Positions 1 through 14,859 of a stretch of 14,859 nucleotides of DNA are shown here, piece by piece. The stretch comes from Octopus sinensis (lineage: Eukaryota), in contig NW_021825800.1 of assembly GCF_006345805.1 (NCBI RefSeq), positions 1-14,859 of the forward strand, written 5' to 3'. How positions within the stretch are numbered: position 1 is the first letter of the stretch; every line of letters begins with the position of its first letter. The notes beneath the pieces are model-generated. The model had not been told where the DNA came from. It saw only the letters and a list, made by a program, of their open reading frames with translations, and did no database searches. The position numbers and the translations under genes were made by a program.

Positions 1-3
1 GTT

Positions 4-35
<32 letters not shown>

Positions 36-41
36 TATATA
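4..41. repeat. (TA)n microsatellite
   Basis: Direct reading. Confidence 0.95.
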
Positions 42-413
42 CTTATACAAATGAGCTTATGTGCATATGTATGTTTGTGTGTGCATGGGTATATGTATAA
101 GCATATACACTGGCATTTCAACCAAGACCACCACTCCTTTTTTTAACATACCTACAACTAAACTATTTACTATATCCTTCCTTATATCTAACACAGTAGA
201 GCATGATATGAGTGAGTGGTGGGGCTGCTATTTCTACAAGTGCACTTGAGCACTGTGTACAATTAGTTGATTCATTAAATCAAGTGACTTGCAGAGGCAT
301 CGTTTCTATCCAATATCTCTTTCAGTCTTCTACAATGGTTAGAGTCTTGTTCCAAGTCAATACGAAGAATCTCTGATACTGAAAGAAGGAATCTCAAAGA
401 GCTTATGTTATTT

Positions 414-577
414 GGTGCTGGCGTGACTGTATGGTTAAGAAGCGTGCTTTGCAATCATGTGGTTTTGAGTTCAATCCAACAGCACAGCACAGCATGGGGC
501 AAGTGTCTTGTTTAGAGCTGATCAATGCCTTGTGAGTGAATTTGGTAAACAGAAAACTGGGAAACTGTGAAAGCTCA
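414..577 (+). mobile_element. SINE family A, 5' half, diverged
   Basis: A-box-like TGACTGTATGG, B-box-like GAGTTCAATCC, GGGCAAGTGTCTT, GCCTTGTGAGTGAATTTGGTA, then runs into the microsatellite. Confidence 0.85.
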
Positions 578-622
578 TATATATGCATACACACACACAC
601 AATTATATATATGTATGTATGT

Positions 623-682
<60 letters not shown>

Positions 683-725
683 TATATATTATAGAAATAT
701 CTATATATGTAATATATATATATAT
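578..725. repeat. Compound (CA)n/(TA)n microsatellite
   Basis: Direct reading; lies at the internal microsatellite position of the preceding SINE A. Confidence 0.95.
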
Positions 726-792
726 GCTATGGAGAAATGAAATTTGCATGTTTGGGAATTGCTAGTTTCACCACAAACAAACAAAAACTCGC

Positions 793-1003
793 TAAAGTTT
801 GCTTCTCAACCACATTTGTTCTGGGTTCAGTCCCACTGCGTGACACATGGGTCGGTGTTTTCATCCATAACTTCAAGCCAACCAAAACCTTGTGAGTAGT
901 CTCAGTAGAGAGAAATTGAAAGAAACCCATTGTATATATATATATGATGATTTCATTTGAATGAAACAGTTCTAGTCCTGTAGAAGCTCCTTCTATAAAA
1001 TAA

Positions 1004-1037
<34 letters not shown>

Positions 1038-1225
1038 ACATATATGTGTGTGCATCTGTCTGTATGTGTTTGTCCACCATTAGCACTTAACCACCAGTGT
1101 TGGTGTATTTACATCCCCGTAACTTACTTCCCTATAAATTTTAGTGCTGCCGTCGATTCATTTGACTAAAATTCTAAGGTGGGGCCCCGGCATGGCTACA
1201 AACAAATAATTGAAAGAAGTAAAAA
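793..1225 (+). mobile_element. SINE family A, diverged, missing the extreme 5' end, with internal insert
   Basis: GGGTTCAGTCCCACTGCGTG, CCAAAACCTTGTGAGT, TTTACATCCCCGTAACTTA and GTCGATTCATTTGACTAAA match 12560-12977. Confidence 0.85.
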
Positions 1226-1560
1226 TTAATAACAAAAAAATGAAAAACGGTCCATGTGGTGCTACATGGCCATGGAGATATGTTGATCAATGGAGGATCT
1301 CCTTTAATGGATTTCTTTTATATGCTGTATACATGCTAAGGTCATTTGGTTTGTATGGATGTATGCATGTGTGTGTATATGTATGTACATAAATACACAC
1401 ACAATAAAACTTATACATGGAAGAGTATATATGTTAGAGCATGCATGGTCAAGGTAAAGAAAATGCAATTCCAGTTCCAATAGTAGAGTGAGGTAATTAT
1501 TTATTAGAAATGGAAATTTCACAAATTTCAGCAACAATTTATGAAGATTCAACCCCAAAA

Positions 1561-1564
<4 letters not shown>

Positions 1565-1605
<41 letters not shown>

Positions 1606-1642
1606 ATGTGAGTGTGTATATATATATATATATATATATACA
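1565..1642. repeat. (TA)n/(TATG)n microsatellite
   Basis: Direct reading. Confidence 0.95.
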
Positions 1643-1644
1643 TA

Positions 1645-1811
1645 GGTGGGGCATGGCTGTAGGGTAAGAAGCTTGCTTGACAACCAATGTTGTTCAGCAA
1701 AAGAACCTGGTAGAATAAGTACCAGGCTTACAAAGAATAAGTCTCAGGGTCACTTTGTTTGATTAAAGGTGGTGTTCCAGTATGGCCACAGTCAAATGAC
1801 AGAACAACTAA

Positions 1812-1815
<4 letters not shown>
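1645..1815 (+). mobile_element. SINE family A, internally deleted (head fused to tail)
   Basis: TGGCTGTAGGGTAAGAAGCTTGCTT is joined directly to GACAACCAATGTTG and then CAAAAG..TAGAATAAGTACCAGGCTTACAAAGAATAAG. Confidence 0.85.
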
Positions 1816-1851
<36 letters not shown>

Positions 1852-1912
1852 TACATACATAAATTTATGTTTGTGTGTGCGCATGTGCATGAGTGTGCAT
1901 GTGTGTGTATGC

Positions 1913-1947
<35 letters not shown>

Positions 1948-1994
1948 CATATGTGTATGAGTGTGTGCATCTATGATGATGATGATGATGGTGG
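1816..1994. repeat. Compound (TA)n/(TG)n/(GAT)n microsatellite
   Basis: Direct reading. Confidence 0.95.
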
Positions 1995-2024
1995 TCTTCC
2001 TTAGTCTCTTAGTCTAAGAAAGAC

Positions 2025-2262
2025 ATTTCTGCAGCCATTCCTTGCTCAACAAAATGCCCAAATGATTTGTTTATAGTAAACAATTGTCTTTGCTGTAAAA
2101 TTAGCTAACGCTCTCCATCAAATCAATATTGTCTAACCAGGTACCATAGATCAGGTTTCGAAGTGTACCATACATCAGTTTTGGGAAGTGACTGCAGAGC
2201 AGCATGAGTCAAAGTGTTTCGTTCAAGAACACTAAGCACCAACCAGACCAGGATTTGAAATC
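2025..2262 (-). mobile_element. Probable third, old tRNA-derived SINE fragment cut off by the family A tail at 2265
   Basis: Minus strand reads GATTTCAAATCC (B-box-like) then GTGTTCTTGAACGAAACACTTT (resembles the CTTGAGCAAGACACTT segment of CORE/V-type SINEs). Single copy here; the left boundary is uncertain. Confidence 0.5.
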
Positions 2263-2264
2263 TG

Positions 2265-2376
2265 GGCTTACAAAAGAATAAGTCCCGGGGACGAGTTGCT
2301 CGATTAAAGGCGGTGCTCCAGCATGGCCGCAGTGAAAATGACTGAAACGAGTCAAAGAGTAAAAGAGTAAGAGTAA
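2265..2376 (+). mobile_element. SINE family A, 3' tail only (5'-truncated)
   Basis: GGCTTACAAAAGAATAAGTCCCGGGG...AAAGGCGGTGCTCCAGCATGGCCGCAGT...GAGTAAAAGAGTAA; CpGs are largely intact. Confidence 0.9.
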
Positions 2377-2536
2377 TGATTAATTTATATATAATGGTAA
2401 TAGAATATTTTATGTAATGAATGTAGGATCTATATCAGTAAGAACTGATGTTTACTTGTACTGAATCAGTTTCAAAATTTCTCAATTCTTACCAAAATTT
2501 ATGCATAAATCCAAATTCTTTCCAGAATAACATCTA

Positions 2537-2627
2537 CCCCCCCCCCACCACCACCACACATGTATACACATGCACATACGCATATGCATGTGCACCAACC
2601 ACCCACACACACACGCACACACGCACA
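2537..2627. repeat. C-run, (CCA)n and (CA)n low-complexity tract
   Basis: Direct reading. Confidence 0.85.
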
Positions 2628-3613
2628 AGAAAAGCAGGGTTGAAAGTCCCTGGGGCTGTATTTGTGCATCTCATCATGCATATGCCCAACTGGAAAGATG
2701 CACATGCACACATGTGCAGTGATGTAACTTTGATTCAATAAGCTATTACCATGGCAACGATTGTTGATAGATGTCATTATATCTTTATATATAGTCTTTT
2801 CAATTCTATGGTCTCAACAAACACTTCATTACGTAGAAGATTTTTCTTTCTTTCTCAAACTCTCTCTCAATGAACCATTGCCTATGAAACGTTGCATTAA
2901 ATTAAGTTTAACCAAAATAAATAAAGAAGTGAAATAAAATACAATAAAATAAAATAAATTTTTAAAAAAAATACTGTTTCCACATATTTGGCAATCAGAG
3001 ATCACTATACATTGAATAACTTTCACGTTGATCATTGAATTATCTTTTTTTTTTTTTTTTTAATTTTCTGTTCTGTTCCTTTCTGTGAATCACAAAACTT
3101 TGCAGAGAGATATGAATTGAAAGCTTGATAAAGAAGCATTAACAAGCAATAAATATGATATACAATAACGAATGCATTATATTTCCTTTCTTCATTTCCA
3201 ATTAATCCTTTATTCACTGCTTCGTATTTACGTAGAAAAATAACTACAAAATGACTTAACCATAAATCAAAACATTTAACAAAATTTAACAAAAAAAAAC
3301 CAAAAAAAAACCAAAGAAAAAGACACGAAGAAAGGCTTTTTACATATATGGCACCTGTACAATATCAGGTAACTCTGCTGGTATTCTATTTAATGAATGT
3401 AGACTGTTGTTAAAGTTAAGCTTATATAACAATCAGAAGAGTCTAGTTCTTGCTCATTCTGATTTTACAGTAATTTTCCTCAGCAATTTAAATATTTGAT
3501 ATGCCACTCCCTGTGGATTTTCTGGTGTTAAGGATTATCGTTTTAAAATGGGTTTAAATATGATGGACAGGCAGTTATTAATGATGTGAGAATAGCAATG
3601 AATAAGTTATAGA

Positions 3614-4047
3614 GATGCAGGTATAACTGTGTGGTATGAAGTTTGCTTTCCAAACAAATGGTTCCAGGTTCAATTCCACTGTATGGCACTTTGAGCAAGT
3701 GTCTTCTACTGTAGTCTTGGACCATCCAAAGCCTTGTGAGTGGATCTGGTTGACAGAAGCTGAAAGAAGACTGTCATACATACATACATACATACATACG
3801 TACATACATATGTGTGTGTGTGTCTTTATGTCTGTGTTTACCCTTCCCCACCACGCAGTTTGGCAACCAGTGTTTGTGTATTTGTGATCTTGAACTTAGC
3901 AGTTCAGTAAAAGAAATCAACAAAATAAATATTAGGTTTAAAAAAGAAATCAATTACTGGAGTTGATTTGTTTGGCTAGAATTCTTCAAAGTTGTCCCCC
4001 AGCATGACTGCCATCTAATGACTGAGACAAGTAAAAGATAAATGATA
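3614..4047 (+). mobile_element. SINE family A, full-length, diverged
   Basis: GGTTCAATTCC B box, GCAAGTGTCTTCTAC, CCAAAGCCTTGTGAGTGGAT, internal (CATA)n, tail GACTGAGACAAGTAAAAGATAA. Confidence 0.9.
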
Positions 4048-4273
4048 GATATGCATATAAATATGATTAAGCAGGAAGCAGGGAAAAAAAGTTCATAGTA
4101 GTTCTTTATATATAGGTAGATATCTGGAAAATTCATACATTAACATCAAAGGTAAGAGAGAGTAGAATTGATGGCAGTTCTTTACAGCTGTTTCTGAGGT
4201 TCATTGATCAATAAGTGGAGTAGTGTGCATTGTAAGTACACATGTATGTACTAAATTGACGTTAGCAAATTTA

Positions 4274-4703
4274 TTACTCTTTTACTCTCTTTTACTTGTT
4301 TCAGTCATTGACTGTGGCCATGCTGGAGCACTGCATTTTAGTCAAGCAAATTGACTCCAGGACTTATTCTTTGTATGCCTAGTACTTATTCTATCGATCT
4401 CTTGTGCCGAACCACTAAATTACAGGGACATGAACACACCTGCATTGGTTGTCAAGCAATGGTGGGAGGACAAACACAGACATACAAACATATACACACG
4501 CACACACACATATATATATACATATATACGTACATATATACGACGGGCTTCTTTCAGTTTCTGTCTACCAAATCCACTCACAAGGCTTTGGTTGGCCCGA
4601 GGCTATAGTAGAAGACAGTTGCCCAAGGTGCCACGCAGTGGGACTGAACCTGGAACCATGAGGTTAGTAAGCAAGCTACTTACCACACAGCCACTCTTAT
4701 GCC
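4274..4703 (-). mobile_element. SINE family A, full-length
   Basis: Reverse complement aligns end to end with 12560-12977; tail of GTAAAAGA(GA) repeats. Confidence 0.93.
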
Positions 4704-5366
4704 TTATATGGAATAACAAAAATTTAAGTTATAATTATCATGTCTCCTACCCCATTATCAGAAGGAATAACTTTTGGTGATTGAAAATACTCAATTTATT
4801 TAAATATAAATCCTCATCGTGATAGAGGGCGACAGAATGGTGGGTCGGAGATCAATAGGGGAGACAGTAAAGAGAAGGCTTAAAAGTAAGAGTGAGATCA
4901 AAACAGCATTAGAAGTAAGAGAGGGTGTTAGTGGCATGATACATAGAAGAGCAAGGAAGAAAAGGAGAGAGAATGTAGAAGATGCCTTTTGACGTACTTT
5001 TACCCCATTATAAAATGGATTTATTATGTAAATAAAGAGATTAAAGTAAATAAGAAACAGACTTACTGAATAATGAATATCAGTCAACTGCTAAATGCAC
5101 AGTAATTTGAAGGCAAAAGAAAAATCCCGCTTTAAAATAAAGATAACTTCTTCAAAATGGCTGCAGGAAATGTAAATAAACTAATAGAGTGCCTCAGTTT
5201 TTTCTTGCGGTAAATTTTCAAAGAAGTATTGTTAGGTTGGGATTTTCATTACACTAGACATCATTATTATGGAAACTGGCTTACCTGGTTTTCCCTTTTT
5301 TACATGTTTGCTATGAAACAACTATGGCTACATTCAGTATATGAAAGTAAGAAAGTGTTTGAGTAC

Positions 5367-5628
5367 AAGGCTATATATATAAGGCTATATATAAGGCTAT
5401 ATATAAGGCTATATATATGGCTATATATATATGGCTATATACAAGGCTATATATAAGGCTATATATAAGGCTATATATAAGGCTATATATAAGGCTATAT
5501 ATATGGCTATATATATATGGCTATATACAAGGCTATATATAAGGCTATATATAAGGCTATATATAAGGCTATATATATGGCTATATATATATGGCTATAT
5601 ATAAGGCTATATATAAGGCTATATATAT
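5367..5628. repeat. Minisatellite (AAGGCTATATAT)n, 21 units
   Basis: Direct reading; variant ATGGCTATATATAT-ATGGCTATATA(C/T) pairs recur at 5417, 5503 and 5577. Confidence 0.97.
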
Positions 5629-5789
5629 GAATTCTGTAAACAATGTGAATCTTATCGACCTTGTGCGCATCTTATAGTGTCTTGGGAGGGTCATCATGCT
5701 AATATTAATATCACATGAACAGGTTCAATTCCACTTCTTTGTTATTAGCCAGTTGGTGAAATTTTCTAATCAACTGACTAATTGATCAT

Positions 5790-5880
5790 TTACAGTTCTA
5801 TATTTAAGAGATGAGGAATTATGTACATTATTTACATTATTTACATTATTCACACTTGACGGATATTTGTGCACATCTTG
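5790..5880. repeat. Possible terminal fragment of another dispersed repeat, with (TACATTATT)x3
   Basis: The 9-bp triplication at 5824-5850 is visible. Assignment to a dispersed octopus repeat is from recall only. Confidence 0.35.
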
Positions 5881-5881
5881 T

Positions 5882-5882
5882 A

Positions 5883-5916
<34 letters not shown>

Positions 5917-5954
5917 GGTGGTGGTTGTGGTGGTGGTTGTGGCGGTGGTGATGG

Positions 5955-5995
<41 letters not shown>
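5882..5995. repeat. (GAT)n-(GGT)n-(GAT)n trinucleotide repeat
   Basis: Direct reading. Confidence 0.96.
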
Positions 5996-6015
5996 TATTA
6001 GTAATAATGATAATA

Positions 6016-6196
6016 AGGCAGTGAGCTGGCAGAAACACTAGCACACCAAGCGAAATGCCTAGTAGTATTTTGTCTGTCTTTACATTCTGAGTTCAAATTC
6101 TGCCAAGGTCGACTTTGCCTTTCATCCTTTCAGGGTTGATAAATTAAGTACCTCCTCCCCAAAAATTTCTGACCTTGTGCCTAGAAGAGAAAAGAA
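6016..6196 (+). mobile_element. SINE family B copy 1 (internal deletion)
   Basis: Head AGGCAGTGAGCTGGCAGAA, B box GAGTTCAAATTC, central GACTTTGCCTTTCATCCTTTCAGGGTTGATAAATTAAGTACC, tail CTTGTGCCTAGAAGAGAAAAG; flanked by 14-bp direct repeats. Confidence 0.92.
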
Positions 6197-6210
6197 TAAC
6201 AATGATAATA

Positions 6211-6677
6211 AGGCAGCAAGCTGGCAGAAATGTTAGCACACTGGGCGAAATGCTTAGTGATATTTCATCTGTCTTTGTGTTCTGAGTTCAAATTCTGCCG
6301 AGATCGACTTTGCCTTTTATCCTTTCAGGGTTAATAAATTAAATGCCTATTTCTTTATTACCCACAAGGGGCCAAACATAGAGGGGACAAACAAGGACAG
6401 ACATAGGTATTAAGTCGATTACATCGACCCCAGTGCGTAACTGGTGCTTAATTTATCGACCCCGAAAGGATGAAAGGCAAAGTCGACCTCGGCGGAATTT
6501 GAACTCACAACGTAACGGCAGATGAAATACCGCTAAGCATTTCGCCCGGTGTGCTAACATTTCTGCCAGCTCACCGCCTTAATAAATAAATTAAATACCA
6601 GTTGCATACTGGTGTCAATCTAATCGACTGGCCATCTCCTCAAACATTTCAGGCCTTGTGCCTAGAGTAGAAAAGCA
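6211..6677 (+). mobile_element. SINE family B copy 2, interrupted by inverted copy 3
   Basis: 5' part 6211-6344 and 3' part 6585-6677 are co-linear with the reverse complement of 13683-13895. Confidence 0.92.
6345..6579 (-). mobile_element. SINE family B copy 3 (different 3' tail), nested in copy 2
   Basis: Reverse complement starts AGGCGGTGAGCTGGCAGAA; tail ...GGCCCCTTGTGGGTAATAAAGAAATAGG. Target duplication AATAAATTAAAT at 6333-6344 and 6585-6596. More CpGs retained, so probably younger. Confidence 0.93.
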
Positions 6678-6744
6678 TAATAGTGATAATAAATTCACTC
6701 TTAGTTACACGTCCACAAATATCAAATTCAATGAGAATATGTTG

Positions 6745-6990
6745 AAGAAACAGACATACAGAAATATGTACAGAAATATAGCTAAGACAGCAAAAGAGAT
6801 AAAGTGAGTGAGAGAGAGAGATCAACTGATAAACAGATGGACAAATATACAGAGAATATAGATGAGCAAATGTGTGCTTGTACATGAGCGAGAGAGAGAG
6901 AGAGATGGGTAGATAGACAGTCAAATACATTAAGAAACATAATAGTGAGCCGGTGGAAGAGGAAAAGATAAATAGGCAGACAGATATGCA
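6745..6990. repeat. Degenerate purine-rich (GA/GATA/GACA) tract
   Basis: Strong purine skew with (GA)n runs. Confidence 0.7.
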
Positions 6991-7393
6991 TTAATATAGT
7001 TTTAGGGAAAGATATGAATAAATAGATCTTCCTCTTATATTTTTAATTCTGTGAATGCCTATGAGCAGTGTGTGTGTGTGTGTGTGAGCACATGTAATTA
7101 AGTTTAAGAAGTGAGATACACTGCTGTAAACTATGGATATCAGAAGAACTTGTTCTGAAATTCTACATGTATCCTCTTAAATTGAGTTTTGGCAGTGAAA
7201 ACGGTCAAATCTGGAAAAAGGTGCCCACAGGGTTCCAAGCTGTTAGATCTTTCTGAAGATCTCTTGTAACTTTTATAGATCTTTACTTGTACTAGGAACA
7301 ACTGAGAGAACCATGTTAGCATTTTGTTACCATTTTAATCACATTTCTTGCTGAGGGCTTCTCTTCTTTCATAGAGATTAAGGAAATTCATGT

Positions 7394-7418
7394 TGATGAT
7401 GATGATGATGATGATGAT
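7394..7418. repeat. (GAT)n microsatellite
   Basis: Direct reading. Confidence 0.93.
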
Positions 7419-7529
7419 AACGATATTACAGATGGCTATTGTGATTGATATCGCCAAAGTTAAAGTTCTCAAAGAAGAATGTGATCAAAGTGATAGAGGA
7501 AAGTTAGTGGTCAAATGAGATGATGGTAA

Positions 7530-7589
7530 TATATCTATCTATCTATCTATCTATCAATCGATCTATCTTTCTATCTCTGTCTCTGTCTG

Positions 7590-7646
<57 letters not shown>

Positions 7647-8004
7647 CACACACATACACATATATATATATACACACACGCATATATATATACACACACA
7701 TGTATATAGCAATGTATGTAATTATATATAATATATATATATATATATATAATTATATATATGTTATATATATAATATATATGTATATATATGTATATAT
7801 ATTATGTGTGTGTATATGTATATATATATATATGTATATATATATATACACATACATATACATGTGTATATAATTGCACATATCATTATATAAGTCTATC
7901 TATCCAGGTAACTATCTAAGTATATATATGTGTGTATGTGTGTGAACATATACATACATACACACATATATACATACATATATATATATATATATATAAT
8001 ATAT
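7530..8004. repeat. Long compound (TCTA)/(TC)/(TA)/(CA)/(TG) microsatellite block
   Basis: Direct reading. Confidence 0.95.
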
Positions 8005-8010
8005 TTATCA

Positions 8011-8061
8011 AACCCATGCTAGTGTGGAAAGCGGATGTTAAATGACGATGATGATGATGAT
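8011..8061 (+). mobile_element. Very short RTE 3'-terminal fragment with (GAT)n tail
   Basis: AACCCATGCTAGTGTGGAAAGCGGATGTTAAATGACGATGATG matches the reverse complement of 8105-8146 and the end of the 12979-13415 copy. Confidence 0.85.
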
Positions 8062-8083
8062 ATATATATATATGTATATGTAT

Positions 8084-8115
<32 letters not shown>

Positions 8116-8260
8116 TTAGCGTCCGTTTTCCATGCTAGCATGGGTTGGACGGTTCAACTGGGGTCTGGGGAGCCCGAAGGCTGCACCAGGCCAGTCAGAT
8201 CTGGCAGTGTTTCTACAGCTGGATGCCCTTCCTAACGCCAACCACTCCGAGAGTGTAGTG

Positions 8261-9740
8261 GGTGATTTTATGTGCCACCGACACAGGTGCCAGACGAGGC
8301 TGGCGAACGGCCACGCTCGGATGGTGTTTTTATGTGCCACCGCCACACACAGGTGCCAGACGAGGCTGGCAGACGGCCACGCTCAGATGGTTTTTTATGT
8401 GCCACCGACACAGGTGCCAGATGAGGCTGGCGGACGGCCACGATCGGATGGTGTTTGTTACGTCCCCAAAGCACGGAGGCCAGTCTATGCGGTACTGGCT
8501 ACGGCCACGTTCGGATGATTTTCTTGTGTGCCACGGCACTGGTACCACACAAAGATACAAATTCCATTTATGTTCATCTATTTTGATTTGTTTTGATTTG
8601 ATTTGATTTGATTTGATTTGATTTTCACTTGCCTCAACAGGTCTTCACAAGTGTCACAAGAAGGAAGGTATGCATAGGTGGACTGTCTACGTCGCCGGTC
8701 TTCGGATGGTGTCTTTATGTGCCACCGACACAGGTGCCAGATGTGGCTGGCGAACGGCCATGATCGGATGGTTTTCTTGTGTGCCACCGGTACTGGAACC
8801 ACAAAGATACAAATTCCATTGATGTTCATCTATTTTGATTTGGTTTGATTTCACTTGCCTCAACAGGTCTTCACAAGTGTCACGCGTGTCACACACTTGC
8901 CTCAACAGGTCTCCACAAGTGTCACACACTTGCCTCTGCCTCAACAGGTCTTCACAAAGTGTCACACACTTGCCTCTGCCTCAACAGGTCTTCACAAGTG
9001 TCATAAGAGGGAAGGTAAGCACAGGTGGACTGACTACGTCGCCGGGTCTTTGATGGTGGTGGTGTTTTTATGTGCCACCGACACAGGTGCCAGGTGAGGC
9101 TGGCGAACGGCCACGATCAGATGGTGTTTGTTGTGCCCACAGCACGGAGGCCAGTCGACGGCCCCACGTTCGGATGGTTTTCTTGTGTGCCACCGGTACT
9201 GGAACCACAAAGATACAAATTCCATTGATATTCATCTATTTTGATTTGGTTTGATTTTCACTTGCCTCAACAGGTCTTCACAAGGACACACTTGCCTCAA
9301 CAGGTCTCCACAAGTGTCACACACTTGCCTCTGCCTCAACAGGTCTTCACAAGTGTCACACACTTGCCTCAACAGGTCTTCACAAGTGTCATAAGAGGGA
9401 AGGTATGCACAGGTGGACTGACTACGTCGCCGGGTCTTCGGATGGTGTCTTTATGTGCCACCGGCACAGGTGCCAGATGAGGCTGGCGAACGGCCACGAT
9501 CGGATGGTGTGTGTTGTGCCCACAGCACGGAGGCCAGTCGATGCGGTACTGGTTACGCCACGTTTGGGTGGTGTGTGTTTCTTGTGTGCCACCGGCACTG
9601 GTACCACGAAGAATACAATTCCACTGATGTTCATCTATTTTGATTTGTTTTGATTTGATTTGATTTTCACTTGCCTCAACAGTCTTCATAAGTGTCACAA
9701 GAAGGAAGGTATGCACAGGACTGACTACGTCCCCGGTCGG
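8261..9740 (-). repeat. Hierarchical tandem-repeat array in the RTE 3' UTR
   Basis: A ~62-bp unit with core TGTGCCAC starts at 8271, 8333, 8398, 8527, 8718, 8780, 9071, 9186, 9454 and 9585. A ~30-42-bp unit starting CACTTGCCTC occurs at 8626, 8852, 8894, 8927, 8967, 9259, 9289, 9322, 9361 and 9668. Four (ATTTG)n tracts delimit super-units of 226, 407 and 409 bp. Confidence 0.93.
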
Positions 9741-9760
9741 GGCCACGGGTTATGGCCTGA

Positions 9761-11969
9761 CTAGTCTTGCCGGGTCTTCTCATGCCAGCATACTTCCATA
9801 GGTCTCGGTCTCTAGACATTTCCTTAGTGAGACCTAAAGTTCGAAGGTCGTGCTTCACCACCTCGTCCCAGGTTTTCCTGGGTCTACCTCTTCCACAGGT
9901 TCCCTCCACTGCTAGGGTGTAGCACTTTTGCACACAACTATCTTCAGCCTTTCTTGTCACATGACCATACCAGCGCAGCCGTCTCTCTTGCACGCCACAA
10001 CTGACGCTTCTTAGGTTCAACTTTTCTCTCAAGGAACTTACACTCTGACGATTATGAACCCTGACATTACACATCCATCGGAGCATACTGGCTTCATTTC
10101 TTGCGAGCTTACGCATATCCTCAGCAGTCACGGCCCATGTTTCACTACCATGTAGCATGGCTGTACGTACACATGCATCATACAGTCTGCCTTTTACTCT
10201 GAGCGAGAGGCCTTTTGTCACCAGCAGGGGTAAGAGCTCTCTAAACTTTGCCCAGGCTATTCTTACTCTAGCAGTTACATTTCAGCACACACCACCCACC
10301 CCCGCTACTGACTTGGTCTCCTAGGTAGCGGAAGCTATCAACTACTTCTAGTTTGTCTCCCTGGAACGTGGCAGAAGTTGGTCTCTGCATATTTCCAGTG
10401 TTTATTGCTCCTGAGCATTTGCCACAGACAAAAACTATTTTCCTAGTTAGCCTTCCTTTGACATTGCTGCACCTCTTATGTGTCCATAGCTTACACTTGG
10501 TGCATCTTATAGAGTTTCTACCTACACCTTTTTTACAGATCGAGCAGGGCCATCTACCTGAAGGCGTTTGTGATTGATCTACCTTCCTACTTATAGAACT
10601 TTGGTTTTGGCTAGGTTGATTCTAAGGCCCTTCGATTCTAATCCTTGTTTCCACACCTGAAACTTCTCCTCCAGTTCTGATAGTGACTCAGCAATTAGAG
10701 CAAGGTCATCAGCATAGAGGAGCTCCCAGGGGCAACCTGTCTTGAATTCCTCCGTTATTGCCTGGAGGACTATGATAAATAGGAGGGGACTGAGGACTGA
10801 ACCTTGGTGGCCCCAACCTCTACCCGGAATTCTTCACTGTACTCGTTGCCAACCCTCACCTTACTAGCAGCGTCTCTGTACATGGCTTGAACAGCTCTCA
10901 CCAACCATCTTCTATCCCTAGTTTCCTCATTGACCACCAGATAAGGGACCGGGGGACCTGTCAAAGGCTTTCTCCAAGTCACAAAAGCCAGGTACAAGGG
11001 CTTATCTTTGGCTAGGTATTTCTCCTGCAGCTGTCTTACCAGGAATATAGCATCAGTAGTACTTTTCCCTGGCACGAACCCAACTGCATATCATCTAAGG
11101 TAACTCTCTCTCTAATTAGTTGGCTACAACCCTCTCCGTAACCTTCATTACCTGATCCAGCAGCTTGATGCCCCTGTAGTTATTTGTCTCTAGGGCGTCG
11201 CCTTTACCTTTGTAGCAGTTGACTATTATGCTGCTACACCAGTCATTGGGTATGACCCCCTCGTGTATCACCTGGTTAACTATACGGGTGACTAAGCTAT
11301 AGCCGACACCACCAGATATTTTGAGCATCTCTGCAGTAATTCCTGATGGGCCTGGGGCTTTCCCTGTTTTCATGCTTCTAATTGCCTTATCTACTAAGGA
11401 ACTGTTAACTCGGATTGCTGGTCCCTCTGTTGGGTCGACATTCGGCAGACTCTCTTTATCCCATTCATTTTCCTCATTCAGCAACCTTTCATAGTGCGTC
11501 TCCAAGCTTCTCTCTTTGCATCCTCATTTAACGCAAGTGAACCATCCTCCATGCGAACACATTTCTCTCCTACCACGTCACGATTCTCTCTCACACACTG
11601 TCTTGCAACACGAAATACCTCAAGTCTTTCATCCTCACGACGCAGGACATGGCAAATTTTTCCTTATCTGCCTCCCCTCTGGCTAGATAGACCTGCTCCT
11701 GGCTTCCCTTCTGGCAGACTGATACACTTCCCTGCTACCACCGTTCTTCCAGGCCTTCCAAGCCTGTTTCTTTTGTCTAATAGCCCTGTCAACAATATTG
11801 TTCCACCACCACGTATTTTGGGTCTTAAGGGGACTTTGCACCAGCCACAGATCTGGTCAGCGGCTTTCAGCAGGTTGTCCCTCAGAAGCGTCCAGTTGTC
11901 TTCTACCCCATGCGTAGCTATACTCCCTTCCATTTCGTCTAAGGCTTCAAATAACATATCTCTAAATCT
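9761..11969 (-). pseudogene. Frameshifted RT ORF of the RTE element (linker, RT, C-terminus; APE endonuclease missing)
   Basis: ORF pieces 11116-11505, 10770-11075 and 9676-10221 join after correcting about a dozen 1-bp deletions. YADD is at 10705-10716. The probable native stop is TAG at 9763-9761 (..DRDLWKYA[V]HEKTRQD*). Confidence 0.92.
10415..10546 (-). other. PHD-type (C4HC3) zinc finger coding segment inside the RT
   Basis: Hand translation: CSIC-KKGVGRNSIR-CTKC-KLWT-H-KR-C-SNVKGRLTRKIVFV-CGKC, i.e. C-x2-C-x10-C-x2-C-x4-H-x2-C-x14-C-x2-C, in frame with the downstream LEVVDSFRYLG. Confidence 0.85.
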
Positions 11970-11971
11970 AA

Positions 11972-12038
11972 ATATATATATATATATATATATAATATAT
12001 ATATATATATGTATAGATATATATATATATATATATAT
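11972..12038. repeat. (TA)n microsatellite at the RTE 5' junction
   Basis: Direct reading. Confidence 0.95.
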
Positions 12039-12332
12039 CCATCCAGGAACTTTAATATGGGAAATCAAGTTTTTCTAAGCAGAGTTTATGGCTGCACAAT
12101 CATCAGAGATAGTTCAACCAAAAAGGAATCTTGACAATACTTTTTGGTCAACAGTGTCTGGCAGTTGTTTAAACATACTGTCAGCTTAAAAAACATAATT
12201 TCAACATGAAACTGCCCAGTGACTTTGCTTGACCAAACACGTTTCATAATTTACAGTATTATGCAAAAATTATACCCACTTCATTACTTCATATAAAGTG
12301 TGCTTTTTTTCTACTTATGAACTCTCCTCAGA

Positions 12333-12451
12333 CATCATCATTATTTCTACCACCAACACCACCATCATAATCATAATCATCATCATCTTCAACATCACCA
12401 TCATCATCATCATAATTATTATCATCTTCACCATCACTATCGTCACCATCA
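12333..12451. repeat. Degenerate (CAT)/(CAC) trinucleotide repeat
   Basis: Direct reading. Confidence 0.9.
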
Positions 12452-12559
12452 TTTTATATGTTCCACTTTTCCTTGCTTGCGTGCAGCAGATTTTTTTATG
12501 TTTGCATACCCTTCCTGTCACACAACCATACTTATTTCTAAGTAAAATATTTCCCCATA

Positions 12560-12977
12560 GGCGTAGGAGTGGCTGTGTGGTAAGTAGCTTGCTTACCAAC
12601 CACATGGTTCCGGGTTCAGTCCCACTGCGTGGCACCTTGGGCAAGTGTCTCCTACTATAGCCTCGGGCTGACCAAAGCCTTGTGAGTGGATTTGGTTGAG
12701 GGAAACTGAAAGAAGCCCGTCATATATATATATATATATATATGTATGTCTGTGTGTGTATATGTTTGTGTGTATGTGTTTGTCCCCACCCCCGAGCATC
12801 ACTTGACAACCGATGCTGGTGTGTTTACATCCCCCGTAACCTAGCGGTTTGGCAAAAGAGACCAATAGAATAAGTACTAGGCTTACAAAGAATAAGTTCT
12901 GGGGTCGATTTGCTCAACTAAAGGCAGTGCTCCAGCATGGCCACAGTCAAATGTCTGAAACAAGTAAAAGAAAAAAA
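12560..12977 (+). mobile_element. SINE family A, full-length (tRNA-derived head, CORE-like segment, internal microsatellite)
   Basis: A box TGGCTGTGTGG, B box GGTTCAGTCCC, then CCTTGGGCAAGT (CORE-SINE-like), central (TA)/(TG) tract and tail TGAAACAAGTAAAAG. Seven related copies lie in the window. Resembles octopus OR-type SINEs (from recall). Confidence 0.93.
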
Positions 12978-12978
12978 T

Positions 12979-13415
12979 AGGCAAAGAGGCTGAGCTTCTT
13001 TCAAGTGTTGGGCCTCGCAGAGGCAAAGTGGCTGAGTTCCTTAATGAGTTTTTGGCCTCACGGAGACATTGACTGAGACCTTAGGCATTATGTCGTGCTT
13101 CAGAAGATGACCCATCAAGCGAAGCAAAATCACAGTCATGGCAGGGACCGGTGTTACACAATTGGTACCCATGCTGGTGGCATGTAAAAGTACCCCCAGT
13201 ATCATACAAATGGCACCCATGCTGGTGACATGTAAAAGCATCCATCACACTTTTGGAGTGGTTGGCATTAGGAAGGGCATCCAGCTGTAGAAAACTATGC
13301 AAATCAGACTGGAGCCTGGCACAGCCTTCCAGTGTGCCAGCTTGGTCAAACCATCCAACCCATGCCAGCATGGACAACGGACGTTTAATGATGATGATGA
13401 TGATGATGATGATGA
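12979..13415 (+). mobile_element. Diverged RTE-related 3' fragment (ORF C-terminus remnant, short 3' UTR, (GAT)n tail)
   Basis: GGAGTGGTTGGCATTAGGAAGGGCATCCAGCTGTAGAAA...CCAACCCATGCCAGCATGGACAACGGACGTTTAATGATG aligns to the reverse complement of 8110-8250. 13054-13120 resembles the LGLT..DRDLW.YAV.EKT coding end. A ~42-bp tandem duplication lies at 12981-13065. Confidence 0.88.
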
Positions 13416-13454
13416 GATGGGTTTACACAAAATATTGCAAGTGACTGTAATATT

Positions 13455-13663
13455 GATTATAAATTTTGGCACAAAGCCAGCAAGTTTTAGGGAGAGGATA
13501 AGTCAATTACATCGACCCCAGTGTTCAACTGGTATTTATGTTATTCTGAAAGAATGCAAAGCAAAGTCAACCTTGATGGAATTTGAACTCAGAATGTAAA
13601 GACAGATGAAATACCGCTAAGCTTCTTGCCTGGTGTGCTAACAACTCTGCCCACTCGATGCCT
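13455..13663 (-). mobile_element. SINE family B copy 4, diverged
   Basis: GGAATTTGAACTCAGAATGTAAAGACAGATGAAATACCGCTAAGC and ATTACATCGACCCCAGTG match 6418-6540. Confidence 0.9.
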
Positions 13664-13682
13664 TACGAGTGAATATAATATT

Positions 13683-13895
13683 CTTTTCTACTCTAGGCAC
13701 AAGGCCCGAAATTTTGGGGGAGGGGGCCAATCGATTAGATTGACTCCAGTGTGCAACTGGTACTTAATTTATCAACCCTGAAAGGATGAAAGGCAAAGTT
13801 GACTTCAGTGGAATTTGAACTCAGAACGTAAAGTCAGACAAAATAACGCTAACTATATTGCCTGACATGCTAATGTTTCTGCCAGCTTGCTGCCT
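13683..13895 (-). mobile_element. SINE family B copy 5, full-length
   Basis: Reverse complement matches copy 2 from head to tail; flanked by TGAATATAATATT at 13670-13682 and 13902-13914. Confidence 0.93.
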
Positions 13896-13953
13896 TGCAA
13901 ATGAATATAATATTAATGCTTGTTTAAATCTATCACACAACATCAAAACAAGG

Positions 13954-14047
13954 CAACACAAACACACATGTATACACACACACACACACACACCACCACA
14001 CATACACACACACACACATATATATATATATACACACATATATATAT
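13954..14047. repeat. (CA)n/(TA)n microsatellite
   Basis: Direct reading. Confidence 0.93.
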
Positions 14048-14048
14048 G

Positions 14049-14443
14049 CTTTTTTACTTGTGTCAATCATTTGATTGCGGCCATGCTGGAGCACTGCCTT
14101 AAAGAGTTTGTTTTAGTTGAAGAAATCAACCCCAGGACTTATTCTTTGTAAGCCTAGTACTTATTCTATCCATCTCTTTTGCTGAACTGCTAAGTTACAG
14201 GGACATAACCACATCAGCATCAGTTGTCAAGCAATGATGAGGGGTCAAACACAGACACACACAATATATATATATATGTATATATACAACGGGCTTCTTT
14301 TAGTTTCTGTGTACCAGATCCACTCACAAGGCTTTGGTTGGCCTGAGGCTATAGAAGAAGACTCTTGCCCAAGGTGCCATGCAGTGGGACTGAACCTGGA
14401 ACCATATGGTTGGGAAGCAAGTTTTTTTACCATGCAGCCTCAT
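14049..14443 (-). mobile_element. SINE family A, near full-length
   Basis: Co-linear with 4290-4695 (e.g. CCAGGACTTATTCTTTGTA, CCACTCACAAGGCTTTGGTTGGCC, GCAGTGGGACTGAACCTGGAACCAT). Confidence 0.92.
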
Positions 14444-14509
14444 GTAAATCTATATGGTGGGAATTTAACCATATCAGATTTAACTATGGCTCCATAGACT
14501 GGGAAAAAA

Positions 14510-14660
14510 ATGACAAACCACTTCAGTGAACTTTTGAACTCTCTTGTATATGCTTCAGAGATCTCTACACCTCTTCCTATTTGCTTATTCCCAGGGGAAT
14601 AAGAGAATAGCTATGGGAAACTGAAGTGCCTAATTTGCATAATAGTACTTAAAATTTCAT
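14510..14660 (+). pseudogene. Possible highly decayed LINE (RTE-like) linker fragment
   Basis: Translates as MTNHFSELLNS...GE*ENSYGKLK...VLKIS, loosely like HYERLLNE...AIRSMK...MLKIS of the large RTE; contains a stop. Confidence 0.35.
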
Positions 14661-14859
14661 TTATTGTCAGTGGCCTGTCAACAACAACCGCAGTCTACAT
14701 AATATCATGGCATAATACAGAATAAGTAAACCTATAAAGCAAATATATAAACAAAGCAAATTTAACTATTGCTTTGTAGATTGAAAAGAAAAGATGATTT
14801 TAATCATTATTCAATCAATTTTCAAAACTTAATGTGTTCTCGTTAGGGGTGCCCATATC

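Follow-up and report, generated by a model that had tools for sequence, protein, structure and literature searches.

A PHD-type zinc finger inside the reverse transcriptase of an octopus RTE retrotransposon, and its possible part in a regional insertion bias

Introduction

PHD fingers are already known from long interspersed nuclear elements (LINEs). In the CR1/L2 group, they are sited in ORF1 or upstream of the APE endonuclease, have Pygopus structures as their top matches, and have been suggested to serve in targeting generally; the passages of PMC4120745 that deal with them give no targeting data, and the role is so far a suggestion. As to how APE-type LINEs choose their regions, the endonuclease is usually held to be the sole determinant (in the relevant part of PMC10499050). 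Here we describe a PHD-type finger located inside the polymerase of an RTE LINE, which was found in a stretch of Octopus sinensis DNA of 14,859 nucleotides (contig NW_021825800.1, positions 1 to 14,859; this whole stretch is called the window below). What is new is that its family is almost restricted to CpG-depleted domains.

Chromatin readers that steer integration are familiar from the chromodomain of chromovirus integrases and from HIV integrase with LEDGF. Those systems differ in being LTR elements or retroviruses, with the reader on the integrase or on a host factor, outside the reverse transcriptase (RT).

Another system is comparable by position. The 6a loop of R2 also lies between RT motifs 6 and 7, where it recognises bases of the target ahead of the nick (upstream), and is required for target recognition by R2Bm (excerpts of PMC10499050 and PMC11601368). 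It is a six-residue base-reading loop, called unique to R2 in those excerpts, and has no sequence likeness to the finger, so the two are treated as analogues only.

Among RTEs, RTE-2_OV and its BovB-like relatives share with our element a single ORF of APE and RT, a microsatellite tail and a TA-rich flank, but they have a 6–7 loop without a finger (motif in 0 of 119), a C-terminal C2H2, a separate clade and no domain bias. RTE-2_OV does occur in the octopus genome, with six published primers matching one locus (L045); the finger-bearing element is not RTE-2_OV, since the primers mismatch it by 5–7 bases. Nearest on the RT-plus-thumb tree are finger-less sister RTEs, which presumably are Rex3/Expander-like and plant-RTE-like, judging from motif likeness.

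The finger and its reading frame

A sequence-only reading of the window had claimed a PHD-type finger between RT motifs 6 and 7, with all eight C4HC3 ligands and with a 1-bp deletion near 10592. The finger is real. Its ligands follow the pattern C-x2-C-x10-C-x2-C-x4-H-x2-C-x14-C-x2-C over 44 residues (minus strand, 10546–10415), and PF00628 (PHD) matches a 116-aa piece at 26.9 bits (E 4.9e-6, cut-off 24), though the score is 19.8 bits, below this cut-off, when the 995-aa protein is scanned whole. RVT_1 matches the adjoining frame, which holds YADD and INLAKTKVL, at 50.7 bits. The deletion is one absent base at ~10593–10594. The parts of the window copy are as follows.

8084..11969, minus strand: 5'-truncated copy of the PHD-bearing RTE LINE, 98.6% identical to the natural copy L036 over 3.9 kb
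9761..11969, minus strand: single-ORF remnant (linker, RT, finger, thumb), its frame disrupted at 14 gaps of one base each and at a 5-base extra; unbroken in L031, L032, L034 and L035
10705..10716, minus strand: YADD, RT motif 5, catalytic
10594..10620, minus strand: RT motif 6 strand INLAKTKVL, aligned to R2Bm and ending at residue 666, six residues ahead of the R2 6a loop (672–677)
10415..10546, minus strand: PHD-type C4HC3 zinc finger of 44 aa, with 13 basic and 0 acidic residues; ligands invariant in two alignments, model resembling PHD folds
10484..10552, minus strand: predicted methyl-lysine cavity residues (W 10552–10550, V 10525–10523, S 10513–10511, W 10486–10484)
10319..10351, minus strand: RT motif 7 (primer grip) LEVVDSFRYLG, a beta-hairpin in the predicted model
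8116..9760, minus strand: 3' untranslated region (UTR) of 1.6 kb, composed of internal tandem repeats and common to long copies
8084..8115, minus strand: (GAT)n tail
11972..12038, strand undefined: (TA)n tract adjoining the element at its 5' junction, with TA-rich DNA in the 3' flank as well

The window copy starts between APE and RT and thus has no endonuclease. Its frameshifts look like long-read assembly errors rather than decay, because it differs from L036 by few substitutions (5 in 3.9 kb) but many one-base gaps, and the missing bases are present at most such places in four other sequencing runs. The 3' UTR is unusually long for an RTE, with repeats of 33–66 bp and larger.

In all 29 other loci examined, YADD, finger and YLG share a single stop-free frame; these come from the 30 of 40 scored matches, window copy included, that were selected for likeness to the finger region. 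That is, the finger is not out of frame with YADD. Natural frames of 1014, 1021 and 1062 codons encode APE, RT, finger and thumb. As expected of an RTE, Exo_endo_phos and RVT_1 share one frame in L031 and L036, and the tandem-repeat tail, (GAT)n, ends the window copy as well as the elements at all 8 long loci examined. The longest frame within 1.4 kb upstream in L036 has 105 codons, i.e., this one copy is without ORF1. Its 5' region (L036:2150–2900) shows a 45-bp motif repeated ~600 bp apart and a splice-acceptor-like run directly ahead of the APE codons. The distance from YADD to YLG is 123–133 aa in 20 finger-bearing matches versus 65–70 aa in the intact finger-less relatives, which lack any insert here, so that ~60 aa have been inserted. 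Among contigs of four sequencing runs that span the finger region, none omits the finger alone. Of the runs that contain the sequence, none is recorded as RNA.

Structure and predicted binding surface

In the predicted model of RT, finger and thumb (pLDDT 92, pTM 0.88), which resembles R2 and L1 proteins (Z 21.4, rmsd 3.9, 467 aligned), the finger has a pLDDT of 91–96 and is predicted to form a cross-brace two-zinc fold. Taken alone, it finds PHD fingers as top fold matches with weak scores (best Foldseek E 0.017; Z 4.8, rmsd 4.3, 53 aligned). Motif 6 aligns to R2Bm up to residue 666, shortly before the 6a loop, and the finger therefore sits in the loop that R2 turns towards its target DNA. 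By analogy, the finger itself may face the target DNA upstream of the nick.

The closest matches in sequence and fold are the PHDs of Pygopus, TAF3 and PHF13. The K4me2 cavity of Pygo is formed by W366, Y341, D352, V350 and A356 (according to part of PMC2726290). In the alignment to Pygo2, together with the conservation profile, four of the five are matched, with the predicted cavity W, V, S and W of the window corresponding to Y341, V350, A356 and W366, respectively, and D352 absent. These positions are well kept: in 130 of 181 proteins, those with standard spacing, we have found an aromatic residue before the first Cys in 92%, V in 89%, S/A in 98% and W in 100%. The net charge ranges from +1 to +13 with a median of +6, and is +13 in the octopus family. 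The octopus finger differs from these PHDs by having no EVND aspartate and no acid after the third Cys, a basic face and a short loop 2. As EVND and a long loop 2 characterize the Pygopus family, we have not assigned the finger to Pygo. It bears out the sequence-only reading in being basic and in lacking the acidic residues of H3K4 readers. Its first loop also has an invariant G and N. Modelled with octopus H3 1–30, the finger gave a complex score of 0.04, with the alignment left unused, which counts neither for nor against binding.

Family size, age and selection

One 20-mer within the finger of this recently active LINE has exact matches in at least 5,473 copies, and the best-matching ones are 99–100% identical. 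A degenerate pattern adds 548 further sites, belonging to older subfamilies that are 71–91% identical where aligned. We have compared 25 old copies (27 with cover, minus two near-duplicates) with the young family. For the finger, changes shared between subfamilies are 27 silent and 11 replacing, while private changes are 15 and 38 (Fisher p=1e-4), and pN/pS is 0.10 for the shared against 0.64 for the private class. When the 12 codons by which the copies had been located are left out, the contrast remains (24/9 versus 11/33, p=6e-5). The RT core behaves like the finger (0.07), and the linker behind the finger gives 0.67, with no selection signal (p=0.75). These counts point to purifying selection on the finger among octopus subfamilies. 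A one-motif search of the octopus genome for finger-less sister RTEs returned 2 matches, both degenerate finger-bearing copies. In several public gene models (P0004, P0098, P0099 and P0007), pieces of the element are spliced to exons of host genes, namely a LETM1-domain gene, myosin, diacylglycerol kinase and slc22a21, which is what intronic copies would lead one to expect.

A 'potentially active' RTE with polymorphic insertions, classed as RTE and named RTE8BF6ALB220127 in the variant call format (VCF) file, was reported in O. bimaculoides by Petrosino et al. 2022 (PMC9115989, parts consulted). The VCF name probably refers to Repbase RTE-8_BF. With one offset, 112 of 123 of its variants fit L031, where about half would fit by chance; across finger and linker 32 of 36 fit, and within the finger 12 of 14, eight positions being common to the 123- and 36-sets. 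Actually, 10 of the 14 finger variant positions are third codon positions. By this match, the two elements are one family. The main text and 4 of 8 supplementary files of PMC9115989 make no mention of a PHD or a domain bias for it. Likewise, the searchable literature yielded no report of an RTE whose RT contains a PHD; Repbase and Dfam lie outside that search, and Repbase may have an entry on it.

Range and origin of the finger-bearing clade

A search with the insert region retrieved 96 proteins, 92 of them with all eight ligands; with the RT upstream of the insert, 1,492 proteins were retrieved, and all eight ligands are present in 114 of the 120 matches listed. Named hosts include O. bimaculoides, the clam Mercenaria, the hydrozoan Hydractinia and the catfish Neoarius. 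Some public protein records are already labelled RVT_1 plus PHD, and the ESM Atlas holds PHD clusters, some with RVT_1. Three finger-bearing RTs (P0118, P0416 and P0417) are filed under Candidatus Thiodiazotropha bins and are likely clam host DNA in symbiont assemblies.

When only the thumb was used, 150 matches were obtained, and the 39 with a YADD motif divide into 20 with and 19 without the finger. In a tree calculated without the insert (449 columns), the 41 finger-bearing rows form one clade (98/99) with one state change; the rows chosen were these 41, 11 of the 19 finger-less and 8 of 120 BovB-like, i.e., RTE-like rows only, with no named Repbase references. One clade and one state change argue for a single old gain, retained since. 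On this evidence the finger appears to mark one old RTE subclade, rather than an octopus oddity.

The suggestion that the Cys pattern arose by chance, or that the finger is a passenger or was created by misassembly, could draw on the frameshifted window copy and the weak fold-search scores of such a small domain. The PF00628 score, the 29 frames, the ligand conservation, the selection and the single clade all speak against it; we have rejected it on conservation and selection, and consider it vanishingly improbable. The finger seen in the sequence-only reading is confirmed. As an interpretation that reading holds in part, having overlooked the Pygopus-type hydrophobic cavity, the old subclade beyond octopus and the biased distribution of copies.

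Genomic distribution of the copies

About half of the octopus genome is CpG-depleted (observed/expected ratio, o/e, 0.15–0.6) and half undepleted (0.7–1.0), with some domains of several Mb. This split is based on C1 0–57 Mb and 136 sampled 10-kb stretches (L101–L200, L261–L296), where CpG o/e is bimodal, and 0.65 was set as the threshold between low and high. Stretches 6–16 kb away from young copies are CpG-low in 19 of 20 cases, versus 9/20 for RTE-2 and 10/20 for fixed positions (Fisher p=2e-4), and a rank test of the young-copy flanks against RTE-2 gives p=0.003. The adjoining DNA is low for 7/7 young copies, 25/26 old ones (30 examined) and 5/11 RTE-2 copies (12 examined); the flanks of the window copy, with an o/e of 0.34, belong to the low class. 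In 76 stretches selected independently of the element, 65 element 3' ends fall in 36 low stretches versus 4 in 40 high ones. On C1 0–57 Mb, the first 100 matches leave five gaps that make up half of the length, and these gaps of the young family hold 0/16 old copies but 8/15 RTE-2 copies (p=8e-4). The bias is equally strong in 99%-identical and old copies.

Over 100 stretches, four large SINE-like clusters are spread about evenly, at 78/58, 72/51, 45/38 and 75/48 between low and high, while the element 3' end is found 89/4. A common SINE-like repeat of the window (3627–3769, 4547–4704, 12557–12716 and 14293–14439) is spread roughly evenly over both domain types. Old short elements that seem to have a 3' end and (GAT)n tail in common with the LINE (window 13211–13411, L198:5990–6170 and relatives), likely its SINE partners, are counted 20 low and 0 high in the same 100 stretches.

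The two domain types also differ in genes. DEAD-family helicase loci are low in 15 of 16 cases and hold 28 element 3' ends (the 16 are those of 57 matches that lie on chromosomes, small-contig matches being left out), and GPCR loci are low in 2 of 20 and hold 1 end. Small unplaced contigs such as C6303, C8853, C8320 and C8701 show many DEAD-helicase matches with very short introns, and are possibly DNA of another organism. Near the DEAD-family exons of L261–L276, 21 of the 30 element 3' ends run in the same sense as the gene. The CpG-low domains hold housekeeping genes. Because 5-methylcytosine in octopus marks the gene bodies of broadly expressed loci and is scarce on transposons (in the part of PMC9476566 consulted), these domains are likely germline-methylated, as their CpG depletion also suggests.

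A preference for (TA)n as the cause of the bias has been rejected, with TA tracts 2.6x commoner in the avoided C1 regions. Target-site duplications were not resolvable in the TA-rich flanks of the 8 copies examined.

The same picture could be produced by unbiased insertion followed by loss from unmethylated domains, through selection or deletion, or by copies that themselves cause CpG loss, and our counts do cover fixed or assembled copies, with no de novo insertions. But the 99–100% identical copies are already at 19/20 in low domains, the depletion 6–16 kb away persists after the element is masked, and the avoided domains still contain RTE-2 and SINEs. An insertion in a housekeeping intron would moreover be expected to cost more, and the sense-oriented ends at the helicase loci do not fit either. 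We therefore regard such an origin of the bias as very unlikely.

Proposed mechanism

We propose that the finger tethers the protein–RNA particle to nucleosomes of transcribed, DNA-methylated housekeeping domains and so steers insertion there, a mechanism for and against which we see about equal odds. The finger is in frame, conserved and of single origin. From the loop that it shares in position with R2 6a, it would face the target DNA upstream of the nick. With four of five cavity positions kept, no acidic lip and a basic surface, it may combine a methyl-lysine pocket with DNA contacts, in a PWWP-like manner. H3K36me3 marks gene bodies and directs their methylation, and is for this reason our first guess for the mark read, with H3K4me1/2 as the alternative. 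Copies are restricted to CpG-depleted domains, where germline methylation would prevail and the finger would be the cause of the restriction. APE would then nick TA-rich DNA close by, with reverse transcription primed by the (GAT)n tail. The sequence-only reading had offered either a guide of insertion or template capture; the former is plausible, and the strongly biased copy distribution favours chromatin targeting over capture of the RNA template.

Several points weigh against this reader. The 0.65 threshold was chosen after the bimodal values were seen, and a rank comparison of the PHD flanks with the fixed positions gives p=0.10. The 3' ends counted are mostly short fragments, taken to have been mobilised by the finger-bearing protein, and a distant RTE, RTE-2, is the single PHD-less LINE control. 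Annotated introns contain 74 of the 211 records of the O. bimaculoides insertion file, and 15 of 35 PASS records examined, counted without a baseline in a fragmented assembly, so that 'gene body' may be too narrow a term. H3K4 readers have an acidic lip and an R2-binding acid that the finger lacks, and its basic charge fits nucleic acid equally well. Finally, a 230-bp TTAA-bounded miniature inverted-repeat transposable element (MITE) is also found in CpG-low DNA only (17 versus 0 in the above 100 stretches; 8 versus 0 in a further count), which means that such a bias can arise without the RTE finger. This MITE (L126:1873, L164, L193, L125:8050–8620) has TTAACCC... inverted ends and is probably piggyBac-like. 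PiggyBac transposases carry a C-terminal PHD-like finger.

The last points are also the strength of another explanation, by which the finger is a basic nucleic-acid clamp, on target DNA as in R2 6a or on its own 3' UTR, that raises efficiency, while the bias comes from open or transcribed germline chromatin or from the endonuclease. The high charge, the absent acidic pocket residues and the unrelated MITE favour it, and R2 6a contacts DNA directly (passages in PMC10499050 and PMC11601368). A clamp, however, needs neither the invariant Trp that precedes the His by two residues nor V and S/A at the cavity base, and RTE-2 and the four SINE-like families show little or no bias; we think it unlikely, yet worth serious attention.

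Alternatively, the finger binds a host protein that moves with transcription or maintenance methylation, giving an indirect tether such as that of HIV integrase by LEDGF. This would fit the same distribution data and could account for the invariant G and N. PHD fingers also bind non-histone partners, as in Pygo–BCL9 (in part of PMC2726290). On the other hand, the region corresponding to the BCL9-binding loop 2 of Pygo is about eight residues shorter in the finger, and the conserved residues lie on the histone face, so this explanation seems to us improbable, less credible than the clamp.

Taken as a whole, our reading is that of an old animal-wide RTE subclade whose polymerase carries a histone-mark reader and inserts into transcribed, methylated gene domains. 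We hold it tentatively, at a probability of roughly 0.4.

Significance

The octopus finger family re-describes the one LINE reported polymorphic in O. bimaculoides. A reader-like finger kept across phyla in the loop with which R2 contacts its target DNA, a regional bias of ~18-fold and a finger-less RTE of the same genome as control together make the choice of regions by an APE-type LINE testable with point mutants. If our reading is true, this would be a reader-guided LINE with a 60-residue module that could serve to direct LINE-based gene insertion, and it would account for the accumulation of thousands of copies and of satellite SINEs in the housekeeping-gene regions of octopus.
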